From: Wolbachia endosymbiont of Armadillidium arcangelii
GTDB lineage: Bacteria > Pseudomonadota > Alphaproteobacteria > Rickettsiales > Anaplasmataceae
Assembly: GCF_040207875.1 (NCBI RefSeq)
Contig: NZ_CP157942.1
Span: 168,001-200,000, forward strand
DNA: 32,000 nucleotides
Reading direction: 5' to 3'
Shown here one piece after another: positions 18,801-23,398 of the stretch. A program made the position numbers and the translations under genes. The notes under the pieces are model-generated. The model saw only the letters and a program-made list of their open reading frames with translations, was not told where the DNA came from and ran no database searches. Every line of letters starts with the position of its first letter. Positions within the stretch are counted from its first letter, which is position 1.

Positions 18801-21241
18801 GATAGCGTATTTAAGGCATTTGCAATATCTTGAGCATTAAACTGATCTAGATAATAAACCAAATCTGATTTTTTTCTCTTTTTTATAATCCGAAGAATCA
18901 GAAGTTTATGATATGTGGAAAAATAAAGATCCGATAACAGATCCAGCTTTGATGTCGCACTTAAGATATTTACAACATCTTGAGCATTAAACTGATTTGA
19001 TATTTCTATTCCCCTTTGAACAAGCTTAAGAATTAGAGGCCTATAATGATCTTTCCAATTAAGGTCCGATGACAGATCCCACTTTGATAGCGCATTTAAG
19101 GTATTTGCAACATCTTGAGCATTAAACTGATCTGATATTTCCATTCCTCTTTCAACAAGCTTAAGAATTAGAGGTTCATAATGATCTTTCCACTTAGGGT
19201 CCGATGATAGATCCCACTTTGATAGCGCACTTAAGGTATTTACAATATCCTGAGCATTAAACTGATTTGATATTCTCTCTCCCTTTTCAGCAAGACTAAC
19301 AATCAGAGGCCTATAACTTTCCCAATTAAGGCACGATAACAGATCCAACTTTGATAGCGCATTTAAGGTATTTGCAATATCTTGAGCACTAAACTGACTA
19401 AGTACTTCCTTTTCCCTTTTTGCAAGCTCAAGAATCAGAGGCCTATAATGATTTTCCCAATTAAAGTCCGATAACAGATCCCACTTTGATAGCGCATTTA
19501 AGGTATTTGCAATATCTTGAGCATTAAACTGACTAAGTATTTCCTCTCTCTTTTTTGCAAGCTCGAGAATCAGAGGCTTATAATGATCTTTCCAATTAAG
19601 GTCCGATGACAGACCCCACTTTGATAGCGCATTTAAGGTATTTGCAATATCTTGAGCATTAAACTGATCTGATATTTTTATTCCCATTTTTGCAAGCTCG
19701 AGAATCAGAGGCTTATAATGATCTTTCCAATTAAGGTCCGATAACAGACCCCACTTTGATAGCGCATTTAAGGTATTTGCAATATCTTGAGCATTAAACT
19801 GATCTGATATTTTTATTCCCATTTTTGCAAGCTCGAGAATCAGAGGCTTATAATGATCTTTCCACTCAGGGTCCGATGATAGATCCCACTTTGATAGCGC
19901 ATTTAAGGTATTTGCAATATCTTGAGCATTAAACTGATCTGATATTTTTATTCCCATTTTTGCAAGCTCGAGAATCAGAGGCTTATAATGATCTTTCCAC
20001 TTAGGGTCCGATGATAGATCCCACTTTGATAGCGCATTTAAGGTATTTGCAATATCTTGAGAACCAAATTTCGTATATGTTTGTGCCTTATTTGCAAGCT
20101 CCAAGATTAGATTAGGGAGCTTCGGATCCTCTATCTTCCATCGATCATTAAAGTTTCTCAGCTTCAATAAGCTATCATAGACACTAGAAAGATCTATGTT
20201 CTTAAAGGGTATGCTTTCATCTTGCAAAGCCCTTATCCATATACTTGCTAATTCACCAAGGAAATTATACAATACCTCCTCCGTCTCTTCAAGAAATCTC
20301 AATCTTTGCCATTTATCCGCTAATATACGGTAGATGATTACAAGTGATGCATTAAGATTATGTTTACCTTCATTTAAATGCTGCAGAATCTCTTGAAATG
20401 TCTTTTTACCTTCTTCTGTATACACATCTCTTTCTGCTTCTTCTGACAAACGAAACATATCATTTAAGTCTATACATAACATCCTTCCACTAGCTGCTCT
20501 CTTGCTTCTTGTTTTACACGGCGTAAAATCCTGTACAGCTATTTTGTATTTACCATGACTAATAATCCACTGCTTTGCTCGTAATGGGTATGGTTTACTT
20601 TTCCTTACTAATTTAATAAGCTGTGCTTCAAAAAATCCTAAGCTTGTCAAATCTCCTCGAATGTAACTATCCATAAGGTTTTTGATTTTTTTTATATTCT
20701 TAAAGTTTTTCTCACCTATAATCGTGCGTGCATTCTCTTCAAAACCCGTCTCTGGATCATCTGATCTGTTTTTAGCATCAGGACCAATAAAAATGTTTCC
20801 AGGAAGCCATAATAAACAAGTAAGAAAGGGATCTTTAATATCAGTGCAAGAAGCTGCTTCATTATTATTACTATGTATAATAGATCCTTCCATTAAATTA
20901 TCTATAAATTCTTGAGCTCTCGTAATATCTTCCCTACTATTACTATTGCCCTCTCTTGATTCTCTATAATACTCAGGGATGTTTTCCCTTAGAGCAGAGA
21001 AAAATCTTCTGAATTTTTTAACATCACCTTTTTCTATCAGCTTATTGTAAAAATCTCTGAGCATGACACGTGAAATAATGTGGTGTTGAGCTAAATCGAC
21101 TGGGTAATCACTCCCCACACCTTCCTTAGTGAGTATTACATTGCGATTTTTTAAAGATGGAGGATAGGGGGATTGTACAGTGATGTCTTTCATTTTTAGA
21201 TTATATTTAACCGGCGTACTTGACTGTCTGTTAGGGATCAT
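9722..21241 (-). CDS. giant modular secreted-effector/toxin-like protein, 3839 aa
   Basis: One uninterrupted ORF of 11520 nt. Layout: unknown N-terminal head; 23 ALSKW (SKWP/OPR-like) repeats; a unique core with a hydrophobic helix cluster; ~19 ankyrin-like repeats; RKRR plus a His-rich linker; a latrotoxin-CTD-like tail. AGGAGG lies 11 nt upstream of the ATG at 21241. The true start may instead be the ATG at 23349 across an intron (see findings). Confidence 0.85.
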   Translation of the reverse strand: MIPNRQSSTPVKYNLKMKDITVQSPYPPSLKNRNVILTKEGVGSDYPVDLAQHHIISRVMLRDFYNKLIEKGDVKKFRRFFSALRENIPEYYRESREGNSNSREDITRAQEFIDNLMEGSIIHSNNNEAASCTDIKDPFLTCLLWLPGNIFIGPDAKNRSDDPETGFEENARTIIGEKNFKNIKKIKNLMDSYIRGDLTSLGFFEAQLIKLVRKSKPYPLRAKQWIISHGKYKIAVQDFTPCKTRSKRAASGRMLCIDLNDMFRLSEEAERDVYTEEGKKTFQEILQHLNEGKHNLNASLVIIYRILADKWQRLRFLEETEEVLYNFLGELASIWIRALQDESIPFKNIDLSSVYDSLLKLRNFNDRWKIEDPKLPNLILELANKAQTYTKFGSQDIANTLNALSKWDLSSDPKWKDHYKPLILELAKMGIKISDQFNAQDIANTLNALSKWDLSSDPEWKDHYKPLILELAKMGIKISDQFNAQDIANTLNALSKWGLLSDLNWKDHYKPLILELAKMGIKISDQFNAQDIANTLNALSKWGLSSDLNWKDHYKPLILELAKKREEILSQFNAQDIANTLNALSKWDLLSDFNWENHYRPLILELAKREKEVLSQFSAQDIANTLNALSKLDLLSCLNWESYRPLIVSLAEKGERISNQFNAQDIVNTLSALSKWDLSSDPKWKDHYEPLILKLVERGMEISDQFNAQDVANTLNALSKWDLSSDLNWKDHYRPLILKLVQRGIEISNQFNAQDVVNILSATSKLDLLSDLYFSTYHKLLILRIIKKRKKSDLVYYLDQFNAQDIANALNTLSKWDLLSDPDWEERYKPLILELVKEGIKISDQFNAQDIANTLNALSKWGLSSDLNWKDHYKPLILELAKMGIKISDQFNAQDIANTLNALSKWGLSSDLNWKDHYKPLILELAKMGIKISDQFNAQDIANTLNALSKWDLLSGLNWKSYRPLIVSLAEKGERISNQFNAQDVANTLNALSKWNLLSDFYWKKHYKSLIVKLIEREMRVAYQFSAQDITNTLNALSKLDPLFSHKFKKNNRFIIIDLVERQVEISNQFSTQDITNTLNVLLKWDLLSDLDRKDHYKSRILRLIKKRKKSDLVYYLDQFSAQDIANALNALSKWDLLSDFNWKDHYKPLILELAKMGIKISDQFSAQDIANALNALSKWDLLSDFNWKDHYKPLILELAKMGIKISDQFNAQDIANTLNALSKWGLSSDLNWKDHYKPLILKLAKMGIKISDQFNAQDIANTLNALSKWDLLSDLNWKDHYKPLILKLTKRGEEILSQFNAQDVANTLNALSKWDLLSDPHLDRYHYNFLIFSLAKMGIKISDQFNAQDIANILNALSKWDLSSDPNWKGHYESLILKLVERGMEISDQFNAQDITNTLNVLLKLDSSSDPDLEKHCNLLIFELKKRRDEPELNIDDEMAVELKEFKSKIGNEVLTRHEKIKGTTTHDVNKSDVLSNALQSLQLNEVSLLMSQESKMSTKLEKKTYYNTLIDIGALVYDHKNHVHRDRLEAIESRIFDNPLLSVGHDLYYLSKNEDNIVDQDKLYSDQIKNKVSSYSYIESGSRLDAIYSELSDTDIKDYFSDSNVEGVYTEIEAYNKEVMTIHSIQVSADEVYVNVKDNNGNYQKVVIGDVASIQNTENYILDEEISEIKFKTDNDKEYVITQEGEDVKHCLNIPGGYKVKVDDVISSLTKNKKEVIRNELNNLGLSASVKEIEEIGNAEITDQGYSNAMNEIRQSFLQKGIGEDTFDRFRNRFDSLGEKIFEEYINDVEKKLEGHGIEFNRNKFDSARVKGAKGGKLFFFMAIYDLFDSILDTSTLGRHDNDALKKIFGINGVLDALDDVRESLSTQHMRPDGSKGVRLLGRKITNKIPDVIRKGFVKIISNPVVKSITFVTVAYQFIYSISEIAKGNHHPLNYYWTTSSGVKLASMSIRPVMGFSFAIKGINITPKILRRLSIASKTLGKLSKVIGVVDMLISIGTSIHERMEYTRAIAEQVPLLPGKEQADVFFAEWRKFFTGRDLGKEYEEVIRIKGHLNDVKKKAVEVLVGSDVAAVVWYISSIKERYNEITIHREGMYSQAMKVHYTVECEPEKEYKNVSFNSGAGTISNSYVAYHNLSLLNIPKALKMKPYILGMSGDVGAFRSNMGCFDKFNEEEVYIIDTNARHVFHLTRFEYENLDLRVVDAPLKYTKKEPQCGAVINLIYPRRKSSACNIAKLRRECTQEFVLSDEPFVLADIKKSRSSPILYLLGPNQLIAAKDYPAIMYVPKGEIDYIGSKYHDNTFIINHDTRGNISGGIVNNIIVMNYDTPSLSVELNKGIVEMGESKIHLLNVYDYVSHSTDNQSIITDCKTRYIDAGEGGGYNSIQSHDVDCQDNDYEVRKVNKRDTHLRSTKQTSFIVDKSSGDGAGINSGNLGSKKNLDVILFEGNDIRLLRINEHQAYYNLELLADDEKSKVASIKVGDFEKLMIQAKKAGITEVVTIQNKSLSDLIKDMKYQKLNHSGIDVGSKIMEDSKKISKAVIIANIIDSEGPTAYKVAKDIINNNNLGVPISLVQAKKIVGNVVYEEIIGGIYTDEIAADFSCENIHCKKVITIEMNSYSSDYVVKFPQTYKRSHSVDFTLRIITAPYASTSDKVIDLTGCDIDPKNIKCKVNCENANEIVLSSHINQGSFQIVLDNYLRGPKYQQVAFQFNKGGRFYKVNSANLKFEPARAGVDPDGENKVGSSLRERMFDAIDQDNMDEVEDLAKSIDIERLTSFDKGCASIEYQDIRGRSLLHLAAQEGKLSMVKFFINQAVSVMDIDKYGNIPFYYAAKNGHTEVVNSLWDKAVGVQREMLEANDYEAFKLAAKNGHTEVVNSLWDKAVGVQREMLGADRYEAFKLAAKNGHTEVVNSLWDKAVGVQREMLEANDYEAFKLAARNGHTKVVNSLWDKAVGVQCEMLGADRYEAFKLAARNGHTKVVNSLWDKAVGVQCEMLGADRYEAFKLAAENGHTEVVNSLWDEAESLGVQREMLKANNYEAFTFAAENGHTEVVNFLLNKTSLSEVQREMLKADSYEAFRFAAKNGHTEVVNSLWDKAVGVQREMLKAGGYRAFNLAAGNGYTKAVNFLWEEAVSLKMEYFMLEAGIIKYEAFKLAAENGHTEVVNSLWDKVKSGVRYKMLRDSGYHVFKLAAENGHIKVVDSLWKKAESFKVQHEMLEFWHHLAFKLAAENGHDKILDFLWGKANSSGVQYSMLMTGCYKPFRFAVKGGYDEVIDSLWTKAKQLGIQLAMLRDNDYYAFKLAAENGHTEVVNSLWDEAESLGVQREMLKANNYEAFIFAAENGHTEVVNFLLNKTSLSEVQREMLKSDSYEAFRFAAKNGHTEVVNSLWDKAVGVQREMLKANNYEAFVLVAKNGHDKILDFLWNKTSLSEIQHEMLKAGGYRAFNLAAKNDHTEVADSLWDKAGSLEVQREMLKTGDYKALALIITGREGVYFLKRFRSAISVDKESIIYSPHISGILIQKWKECLEAVAHRENEEMFKWVWQTFILPLRLEKKQEISEFYQEFKQNSTEAGGSPKRAEESVQEKKKTTQRKRRHHHGDYNRHHGHLSRKPLAIDLSNQHEVVASSSARPSSWINDLFSWVKDSIGGLFSSRAALPEETLNTTSSISQIDAPIDVNGTIMLLDLLIRKVTGQKYISTADQPISPLEAQSYALNITKGFERLLNETATKSGISVKNLSFDPVVVQSAIVRQIVSEKFSEISKTLYSFAKEACPELKQTDKFLVHLRSQLEGEKETVLLQQKIEKPSEVLDQQVSRKVELPKRPNTFLNGTSVVKGISSVLER
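9725..10465 (-). other. latrotoxin C-terminal-domain-like module (about 245 aa)
   Basis: This is the position after ankyrin repeats and a furin site, as in spider latrotoxins and WO-phage EAM proteins. The block NGTIMLLDLLIRKVTGQKYIS...AQSYALNITKGFERLLNETATKSGISVKNLSFDP resembles my memory of that domain. It has not been verified by a search. Confidence 0.45.
10466..10477 (-). other. RKRR furin-type dibasic cleavage motif followed by a His-rich linker
   Basis: Codons CGC AAA CGT CGT give ..KKTTQRKRRHHHGDYNRHHGH.., which fits R-x-K/R-R. The site lies between the ankyrin-like array and the C-terminal domain. Confidence 0.5.
10790..12890 (-). repeat. about 19 tandem degenerate ankyrin-like repeats, period 105-111 bp
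   Basis: The array opens with a canonical ANK (GRSLLHLAAQEGKLSMVKFFINQAVSVMDIDKYGNIP). It then repeats YEAFKLAAKNGHTEVVNSLWDKAVGVQREMLEAND. cccctactgcc recurs at 12490 and 12595 (105 bp). A ~300-bp block at 11044..11347 is nearly identical to 11931..12232. Confidence 0.85.
15230..15800 (-). other. cluster of hydrophobic, probably membrane-inserting helices inside the unique core of the giant protein
   Basis: Segments GGKLFFFMAIYDLFDSIL, IISNPVVKSITFVTVAYQFIYSISEIA, VKLASMSIRPVMGFSFAIKGI and LSKVIGVVDMLISIGTSI lie within about 190 residues. Confidence 0.5.
16955..20068 (-). repeat. 23 tandem coding repeats, period 135 bp (45 aa; variants 132/138/150 bp), ALSKW / SKWP-OPR-like helical repeats
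   Basis: The consensus unit is QDIANTLNALSKWDLSSDxNWKDHYKPLILELAKMGIKISDQFNA. The motif cccactttgatagcg recurs every 135 bp (for example 17567 and 17702). Several neighbouring units are nucleotide-identical. The unusual 50-aa unit (..KKRKKSDLVYYLDQF..) recurs 958 bp apart (17889 and 18847). Confidence 0.9.

Positions 21242-23398: not shown

Follow-up and report, generated by a model that had tools for sequence, protein, structure and literature searches.

A decayed group II intron at the start codon of a giant Wolbachia gene, and relatives that carry a Shine-Dalgarno sequence and an ATG of their own in domain VI

In the genome of the Wolbachia endosymbiont of Armadillidium arcangelii, a giant repeat-protein gene has a group II intron placed exactly after the ATG and one further nucleotide of its original start, and this intron is itself split by an insertion sequence (IS). 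The stretch analysed, called the window below, comprises 32,000 nucleotides of contig NZ_CP157942.1 (positions 168,001 to 200,000; the coordinates given here are those of the window, and a caret marks a splice junction). A sequence-only reading of the window had proposed an IS4/IS50-like element nested in an intron that lacks an open reading frame (ORF), together with a split start in frame with the giant ORF; the nesting is borne out by sequence, Rfam and Pfam, and all the coordinates given in that reading are correct. The same reading took the start at which the giant ORF is called, ATG 21241, for a fortuitous one, and in this it was mistaken, since the Shine-Dalgarno (SD) sequence and the ATG are carried by the nearest relatives of the intron, hence inherited, and recur in 21 introns situated at start codons. 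We consider it likely that the element is a decayed member of a start-codon-homing lineage, that its splicing has probably been lost, and that the giant protein is most likely made from ATG 21241.

The intron was recognised by two Rfam matches, namely RF02005 (group-II-D1D4-6; 23339-23107, 123 bits, E=1e-34, with a gathering score of 49) and RF00029 (domain V/VI; 43.5 bits with a gathering score of 40), the latter placing domain V at 21326-21292; without the IS, it amounts to a ribozyme of 626 nt. Its relatives were gathered by a domain V pattern scan of species-representative genomes (L002, L011, L020, L010, L013, L021 and L039), by a metagenome scan with alignment of the intron-encoded proteins (IEPs) of the relatives (80 loci, L044-L123), and by exact-protein look-ups in Wolbachia genomes (L124-L141). 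On the minus strand, the stop codon of an upstream ankyrin-repeat gene (23401-23399) is followed in order by GGAGG, ATG, G and the intron 5' end GTGCG, and SDs equivalent to this GGAGG (23360-23356) precede the ATG of the 5' junction in related introns. Domain VI folds at -25.7 kcal/mol (z=-5.6), with the stem GGGAUCAUA/UAUGAUCCC, a bulged A at 21232 and the intron end ...AACAGAC at 21226. The bulged A is thus seventh from the intron end, with six nucleotides between it and the 3' end, as in all the relatives, whose branch-A ends read CUA-CUCGAC and CUA-CCAGAC, and as in the IIF intron Pe.th.I2 (PMC3753933).

The 3' segment of the intron is 87% identical to that of the Wolbachia copy L124 and 88-90% identical to those of three copies (L002, L011 and L020) located in the Rickettsiales metagenome-assembled genome (MAG) Gx481_bin163 from the termite gut. 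The likeness of L002 and L011 to the window ends at ...CAGAC^ (21226^21225), with the sequences divergent beyond it, and the Rfam match in both of them terminates at the same base, so that the alignment and the Rfam end agree on the 3' splice site that had been proposed. The boundary at 21159 drawn by Rfam for domain VI in the window was rejected, as the same model stops at ...CAGAC in L002 and L011; its overrun in the window, as far as a downstream CCUAUCC, is owed to mutation of the basal helix under the branch A. The joined exons 23346/21225 read ATG GAG TCA AGT..., that is MESSTPVKYNL, in the same frame as the giant ORF, and reading without splicing across 21226/21225 from ATG 21241 gives MIPNRQSSTPVKYNL; both ATG 23349 (spliced) and ATG 21241 (unspliced) are therefore in frame with the body of the giant ORF.

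The reading of the target was studied in a domain I alignment of 35 introns, 33 of which entered the covariation test for exon-binding site 1 (EBS1). EBS1 of the window (UCAUA) pairs with the intron-binding site 1 (IBS1) UAUGG at 23350-23346 by 5 bp, one of them G-U; over the family, the mean anchored pairing of the EBS1 loop with its own 5' exon was 5.9 bp compared with 3.65 +/- 0.22 bp for the permuted pairs, and none of 5000 permutations reached the observed value. This covariation, together with the UCAUA/UAUGG pairing, indicates that ATGG^GTGCG is a genuine homing junction. EBS1 has the form (U/C)CAU... in all the ATG-site introns, from which the start codon itself appears to be what the ribozyme reads. 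The first base of the 3' exon is A in nearly all cases, the typical target being ATGA^AA, which corresponds to the common Met-Lys start. Where domain VI has no ATG, the 5' exon is of unrelated sequence but nonetheless fits the EBS1 of its intron, as in GGGGACA^, TTTGGGGGA^ and TCTGACA^. A role of EBS2 as an anti-SD mimic was also considered and dropped, the internal-loop candidate being without covariation across the family.

It could be argued that the ATG at the 5' junction is a coincidence, with the intron inserted in a 5' untranslated region and the native start located downstream, for instance at Met17 (ATG AAA GAC, at about 21193). Only one distant homologue of the first 360 aa of the giant protein (P0001, 33% identity) was found among 5.8 billion proteins, and it aligns from residue 24, which leaves the first 23 or so residues unconstrained; moreover, an in-frame match has a prior of 1-in-3. 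Such a coincidence is very improbable, given that EBS1 forms base pairs with UAUGG at the end of the exon, that the ATG has a strong SD 6 nt 5' of it, that 20 other members of the lineage have an SD..ATG+N^ junction with real ORFs after it, and that Met17 has no SD. The arrangement in the window lies far beyond chance: separate sets of related sequences support the 3' end, the 5'-exon pairing and the frame match.

The second start, that of the intron itself, has the same structural setting in the window and in several related introns. The 3' strand of the domain VI stem contains ATG 21241-21239, 11 nt past AGGAGG (21258-21253), and the domain VI of the nearest relatives reads AAGAGG-N11-ATG ATC TCT ACC AGA C^, the SD of the window being the stronger of the two. 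Among the other versions of this domain VI start, of which there are several in more distant relatives, are TTAGGAGAAAATTATATG ACT ACT CGA C^ (L039, L013, L042, L037 and L044), AAAGGAGATATAAACTATG CCT ACT CGA C^ (L021, an ORF-less intron of 730 nt) and AAAGGAGGTTATAAAAGATG TCT ACT CGA C^ (L051, L054 and L057), and the layout with the SD at the tip of domain VI and the ATG in its stem is the same in the L051- and L053-type introns. In every intron with a domain VI ATG whose 5' junction can be seen, SD-N5-9-ATG and a single further base close the exon, as in GGAGGAATAAAAAATGA^, AAGGAGAATGGCAAATGA^ and AAAGGAGGAGGAAAAATGA^, and the 3' end of the introns with both features follows the design SD+ATG+(3k+1 nt)^; L090 is inserted directly after ATG^, with its internal ATG shifted to match.

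In a lenient reading, an SD..ATG+N^ at the 5' junction is combined with an SD and ATG near the 3' end in 21 introns out of 33, including the window, the ORF-less L021, L039, L013, L044 and L046-L090. Under the strict test of the 33 introns with both junctions, the table of the two features was 16,3 / 3,11 (Fisher p=4.6e-4), and the frames match in 16/16 strict double-positives. Near-identical introns occupy different start codons (L046/L047, L051/L057, L053/L058 and L039/L013/L044/L042/L037), which means that the insertion at start codons happened repeatedly. The downstream exons resemble real N-termini, among them those of the ATP synthase beta subunit atpD (KQGKIVQVIGPVVD), a racemase-like protein (TIGMIGGMSWES), lipoprotein and signal peptides, and a prepilin (FTLVELL). 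Thus, the combination of a start-codon site with an SD and ATG in domain VI is well supported as a lineage-wide pattern by these alignments, and the domain VI start appears to be an inherited, recurrent trait tied to start-codon homing.

Full-length relatives encoding IEPs of 433-437 aa are common in Wolbachia, with ribozymes 83-87% identical to that of the window; the IEPs of the relatives overall have 430-453 aa and end soon after domain X. One full-length Wolbachia copy is inserted at the start of a prophage WO ankyrin gene, GAGGTATGTAATG^...AAC^AGTAAAAAAGAG, giving MSKKEKE..., two further ankyrin starts being similar; another lies at a phage minor-tail gene (AAAATGT^...CAGAC^CTGTTCAT), and one ectopic copy was found inside an APH gene at CCATG^. 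In the prophage WO ankyrin genes (L132-L141, with the gene called at 2814 in L132, and L128-L131), the annotated GTG start stands 12 nt past the stop codon of the IEP, and the first 38 or so residues of these annotations are translated from the intron domains V and VI; to judge from the junctions, the real start (ATG^) would be 1.9 kb upstream, at the 5' junction. The window itself comes from a supergroup B Wolbachia, since its Der GTPase is 95-97% identical to those of group B strains.

The three copies in MAG Gx481_bin163 stand at contig starts, with the intron in the first 260 nt or so. This MAG holds multiple copies of the ORF-less intron, within which its contigs break; L020 has no SD-bearing tip of domain VI. 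The 3' flanks of L002, L011 and L020 all begin with (A/T)GGTGAG(C/T)ATA and have in common a palindromic repeat, GGATCCCAGTGTCGAG(G)CACTGGGATGAC, so that the site of the intron there seems to be a further repeated element and not the start of a gene. The junction of the IEP deletion in the window is common to L011, and the ORF-less derivative would therefore have spread before the window and MAG copies diverged.

The state of the window copy was derived from its alignment with L124, L125 and L011. The IEP ORF is gone save for about 12 N-terminal codons (MQGKLNQIAV, from 21385), with about 1.29 kb deleted in comparison with L124 and L125. Just past GUGCG, 28 nt are absent, and with them one strand (CCAAG) of a helix of which the other strand, AACUUGGGAG (23078-23069), is kept; this helix covaries in the relatives (CCAAG with CUUGG, CCGAG with CUCGG, CCACG with CGUGG). 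The IS is inserted between the same domain I helix and the conserved GGAAGUCGGAC core, that is, outside domain IV. Domain V has acquired a 2-nt insertion that is absent in four relatives and breaks up the upper helix of 4 bp and the loop of 5 nt that typify this class (GCGGGAAATTCACGC in the window versus GCGGGAAA(G/T)(T/C)--(C/T)GC in the relatives). Beside the branch A, the C of the relatives is replaced by A, and the basal helix of domain VI is thereby opened, in the window only. Finally, an ORF of 110 codons (23017-23349, minus strand) runs from the original ATG 23349 through domain I of the intron into the IS, whereas the L039-type relatives have a stop codon within 5 codons past the 5' splice site. 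These six lesions together make splicing unlikely, and the doubt already expressed about it on account of the missing maturase and the IS has been strengthened by four further lesions of the ribozyme; the absence of a maturase is true of the window copy and does not extend to other Wolbachia genomes, where the IEP-bearing relatives of 433-437 aa exist.

These relatives are the chief reason to consider that the intron is still spliced, with a maturase provided in trans by putative intact copies in other parts of the same genome and with the IS tolerated, in which case the protein would begin with MESSTP from ATG 23349 and ATG 21241 would be irrelevant. The dependence on a maturase in trans has been documented for ORF-less bacterial introns (PMC4424553, PMC12584367), and the EBS1-IBS1 pairing of the window copy is intact, with GUGCG, the domain V core and the branch A present. 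Even so, such trans-assisted splicing is unlikely, because it would have to proceed with one strand of the covarying domain I helix removed among the missing 28 nt, with the window-only insertion in domain V and the mismatch in the helix below the branch A, and with an IS of 1.5 kb between domain I and the domain III-like core and not in domain IV; in addition, ribosomes translating the 110-codon ORF from ATG 23349 would unfold the ribozyme. Splicing of the window copy has thus probably been lost.

The IS belongs to the IS4 family and is bounded by perfect inverted repeats of 24 bp, for which the shuffle control expects 0 matches. Its transposase matches PF14706 (Tnp_DNA_bind, E=2e-25), PF01609 (DDE_Tnp_1) and PF02281 (Dimer_Tnp_Tn5), its tblastn matches are annotated as IS4 family, and its identity to any plasmid-borne IS4 transposase searched is at most 40%. 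With IS50/Tn5 it shares the Tnp_DNA_bind, DDE_Tnp_1 and Tn5-dimerisation domains and terminal repeats that begin with CT.ACT; it differs in that its transposase is frameshifted at a run of eight A (22666-22659), leaving minus-strand ORFs at 22969-22634 and 22650-21385, and in that the putative duplication in its flanks is only 7/9. An IS of the IS50/Tn5 type should duplicate 9 bp of its target; here the 9-mers on the two sides, TTCCTATTG (23058-23050) and TTCCTACTA (21564-21556), are identical at 7/9 positions, and the uninterrupted target is present in L124 and L125 (GCATTCCTACAAAGG), the undisrupted 9-mer of the relatives being TTCCTACAA or TTCCTGTAA. No stop codon closes the second transposase ORF within the IS, and it continues for 180 nt into the intron, as far as 21385.

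These findings are consistent with the following course of events. The lineage would retrohome into translation-initiation sites, where EBS1 (U/C)CAU... would pair with the start codon and the intron would land after ATG+1 nt, and domain VI would bring a substitute SD and ATG, which precede the 3' splice site by 4-6 codons plus 1 nt and keep the frame. When the intron is spliced, the host protein would be made from its own ATG; if it is not, ribosomes would start at the intron ATG and read over the 3' splice site, with the native first two residues swapped for five to seven intron-encoded ones, so that the host gene would be translatable whether or not the intron splices. In the window, the intron would have landed on ATG-G^AG of the giant repeat-protein gene, just 3' of the ankyrin gene, and then decayed, the IEP having been deleted already in an ancestor shared with the Rickettsiales MAG, the other lesions following, and the IS entering the short domain II region. 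The giant protein would now be made as MIPNRQSSTP... from ATG 21241 by means of AGGAGG 21258-21253, with the transcription coming from upstream, either as read-through from the ankyrin gene or from the IS. As the branch site and the intron AUG lie in the same helix, initiation and branching would exclude each other. A wider proposal, held tentatively and with somewhat less than even confidence, is that the lineage (Bdellovibrionota, Bacteroidota, Lentisphaerota, Wolbachia, other Rickettsiales and metagenomes) evolved a dedicated start-codon homing with a spare start, that this exclusion may serve as a switch between splicing and translating through, and that ORF-less derivatives may now provide working host starts, including that of a protein of 3839 residues.

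The expression of the giant gene is also the point at which a different outcome has to be weighed, namely that the insertion killed the gene and that the giant ORF is a recent pseudogene without a promoter or a working start, its frame being intact only by recency. A scan showed no promoter-like site between the IS and ATG 21241, the two nested mobile elements cut the gene off from the upstream signals, and the window is rich in decaying mobile DNA (a frameshifted reverse transcriptase, a frameshifted transposase and a second IS). The gene island is, furthermore, absent from the closest genome examined: a search for an empty site by synteny through Der (97% identity) showed that this genome has der-dsbB without the ankyrin/giant-gene island. 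Nevertheless, a stop-free ORF of 3839 codons at about 35% GC is hard to keep without selection, the intron is old enough to have accumulated several lesions and a diverged putative target duplication (7/9), the AGGAGG of the window is stronger than the AAGAGG of the relatives, and the minus strand from the ankyrin gene to ATG 21241 showed no terminator-like site. A dead gene is, on this balance, unlikely.

Several observations weigh against the reading of the window as a decayed start-codon-homing intron from whose ATG the giant protein is made. Several full-length Wolbachia copies are inserted at start codons with no ATG in domain VI; the three MAG copies closest to the window stand at no obvious gene starts; and L047 and L049, which occupy ATG sites, precede short ORFs only. 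The link between ATG sites and real gene starts could partly reflect selection after the insertion. The EBS2 candidate (AACAUC/GGUGUU) forms 6 bp in the window, and its pairing over the family is 4.91 observed versus 4.88 permuted. P0001 is uninformative on the start of the giant protein, and the databases searched contained no orthologue of its N-terminus to confirm MESSTP. A scan for sigma-70-like promoters was negative in the 3' intron segment and around ATG 21241, with fewer such sites overall than in the shuffles, and transcription across 2.1 kb of mobile DNA is assumed. The intron is provisionally assigned to the class E/F type (IIB-like) by its structural hallmarks and by RF02005. The sequences directly show the anatomy, the boundaries, the covariation of EBS1 with IBS1, the lineage-wide link between the two traits, and the lesions; the use of ATG 21241, the loss of splicing, the source of transcription and the fail-safe function are inferred from them.

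Introns with a comparable choice of target have been described in the IIB1 (CL1-lineage) clade, members of which stand at start or stop codons, e.g., Avi.groEL and EcKTE56.groEL, and have a subdomain Ia of 300-700 nt and an IEP with an endonuclease domain (Michel et al. 2007, as summarised in PMC12584367). The insertion in or beside initiation or termination codons is the same here (ATG G^ in the window and ATG+N^ in 20 relatives), as is the regeneration of the disrupted signal by the intron, which in that clade turns the groEL UAA into UAG (PMC12584367). The ribozyme and IEP lineage are different, with a ribozyme of about 630 nt and a 5-nt domain V loop here, and the restored signal is an SD and AUG built into domain VI. 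The window has no subdomain Ia insertion, and what follows GUGCGCC in most relatives is no more than a short hairpin of about 30-45 nt. An insertion of about 50-80 nt is found in L053, L058 and L083 some 40-120 nt past the 5' splice site, after the first domain I hairpin, which is the same general place as that of the large subdomain Ia of the IIB1 start/stop-codon clade. The IEPs of 430-453 aa in the relatives leave no room for a CL1-type endonuclease domain. With neither of these two features, the element appears to work like the IIB1/CL1 clade without being a member of it.

The class E/F introns, such as Cl.be.I2, Pe.th.I2 and Ge.ur.I1, have a ribozyme of 450-700 nt, not counting the ORF, a domain V loop of 5 nt, six nt from the branch A to the 3' splice site and an IEP without an endonuclease domain, and in them EBS1-IBS1 is the decisive exon contact, the role of EBS2-IBS2 being unclear (PMC3753933). 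The small IIB-like ribozyme, the domain V loops GAAAA, GAAAU and GAAAG of the relatives and the IEP without an endonuclease domain are the same here; the difference is that neither start-codon insertion sites nor an SD and AUG in domain VI are mentioned in PMC3753933. The group IIC-attC introns carry internal, outward-oriented promoters (PMC3001079) and are similar in that an intron-borne expression signal keeps a downstream host gene on; there, however, it is a transcriptional promoter for integron cassettes in class IIC introns, whereas here an SD and AUG are fused in frame to the host ORF. The ORF-less introns that rely on a related IEP in trans are known from dnaN of Trichodesmium and from Thermosynechococcus (PMC4424553, PMC12584367, PMC2882425); they share with the window copy the deletion of the IEP and the presence of IEP-bearing copies, here in the same genus, the shared deletion junction implying that the ORF-less form spread, and the window copy differs from them by the further ribozyme lesions and the IS, being probably unspliced. 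The literature searched, outside which lay the key older papers (Michel 2007, Simon 2008, Leclercq 2011), contained no account of start-codon homing by class E/F introns or of a domain VI with an SD and AUG. As far as we can tell, the lineage-level design is new, and its closest precedent is the IIB1 start/stop-codon clade.

By this means a selfish ribozyme could target SD..AUG-A^AA, which is among the most conserved short motifs of bacteria, and do so cheaply for the host by supplying a spare start; this would be a parallel to the groEL stop-codon introns, reached in another lineage with a different device. A practical consequence is that gene callers start host genes inside the intron, as with the giant ORF and with the prophage WO ankyrins in public Wolbachia genomes, and the called N-termini, including any effector secretion signals, may be wrong. 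The giant ORF is composed of repeats of about 40 residues (...FNAQDIANTLNALSKWDLSSDPKWKDHYKPLILELAK...) that match Pfam DUF1601, and which we take to resemble the SKWP-type repeat effectors; this giant repeat protein, possibly an effector, appears to be reliant on signals of mobile DNA.

Table 1. Coordinates of the intron, its start signals and other features of the window
Feature	Position	Strand	Basis
Group II intron, whole, including the IS	23345-21226	-	Rfam and relatives
Intron 5' end GTGCG	23345-23341	-	sequence; directly after ATG G
Intron 5' segment, 296 nt (GUGCG, domain I to the short domain II region)	23050..23345	-	RF02005; 83% identity to L124
EBS1 UCAUA, domain I hairpin loop	23175..23179	-	covariation with the 5' exon end
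IS4-family (IS50/Tn5-like) IS, 1485 bp	21565..23049	-	perfect 24-bp terminal inverted repeats
Intron 3' segment, 339 nt (domain III-like core, domain IV remnant, domains V and VI)	21226..21564	-	relatives
Domain V; upper helix/loop with 2 extra nt in the window only	21292..21326	-	RF00029
Domain VI; ATG 21241-21239 in the stem, AGGAGG 21258-21253 at the tip, branch A 21232	21226..21287	-	fold
Original SD of the giant gene, GGAGG, in the 5' exon	23356..23360	-	sequence; 6 nt 5' of ATG 23349
Original ATG (23349-23347) and G 23346, last 4 nt of the 5' exon	23346..23349	-	pairs with EBS1
3' exon, the body of the giant ORF; 3839 codons from ATG 21241	9722..21225	-	in frame with ATG 23349 (spliced) and ATG 21241 (unspliced)
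Upstream ankyrin-repeat gene; 49 nt from its stop to the original giant-gene start	23399..25003	-	Pfam Ank families
Second group II intron, of another class (RF02012 D1D4-7), in a PD-(D/E)XK (Rpn-like) gene after codon 15	6564-8810	+	
Second, unrelated transposase ORF, 425 aa	3407-4684	-	

The rest of the window contains a second group II intron (Table 1), whose exons are located at 6519-6563 and from 8811 onwards on the plus strand and read, when joined, MALSKFLDARNDYAF^KRIFGTEKNK. Its reverse transcriptase is broken into three ORFs (7169-7993, 7905-8225 and 8215-8634). The 3' end of this intron was placed by Rfam at 8793, and at 8810 by the domain VI helix and the exon frame, so that, with the end at 8810, the 396-aa ORF 8631-9821 starts inside the intron. 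A gene pair described as a "group II intron maturase + PDDEXK2 transposase" has been reported in the wPip cid islands (PMC13439711), and by analogy it may represent the same arrangement of an intron in a gene. With the two introns, the IS and the second transposase, at least four mobile elements are present in these 32 kb.

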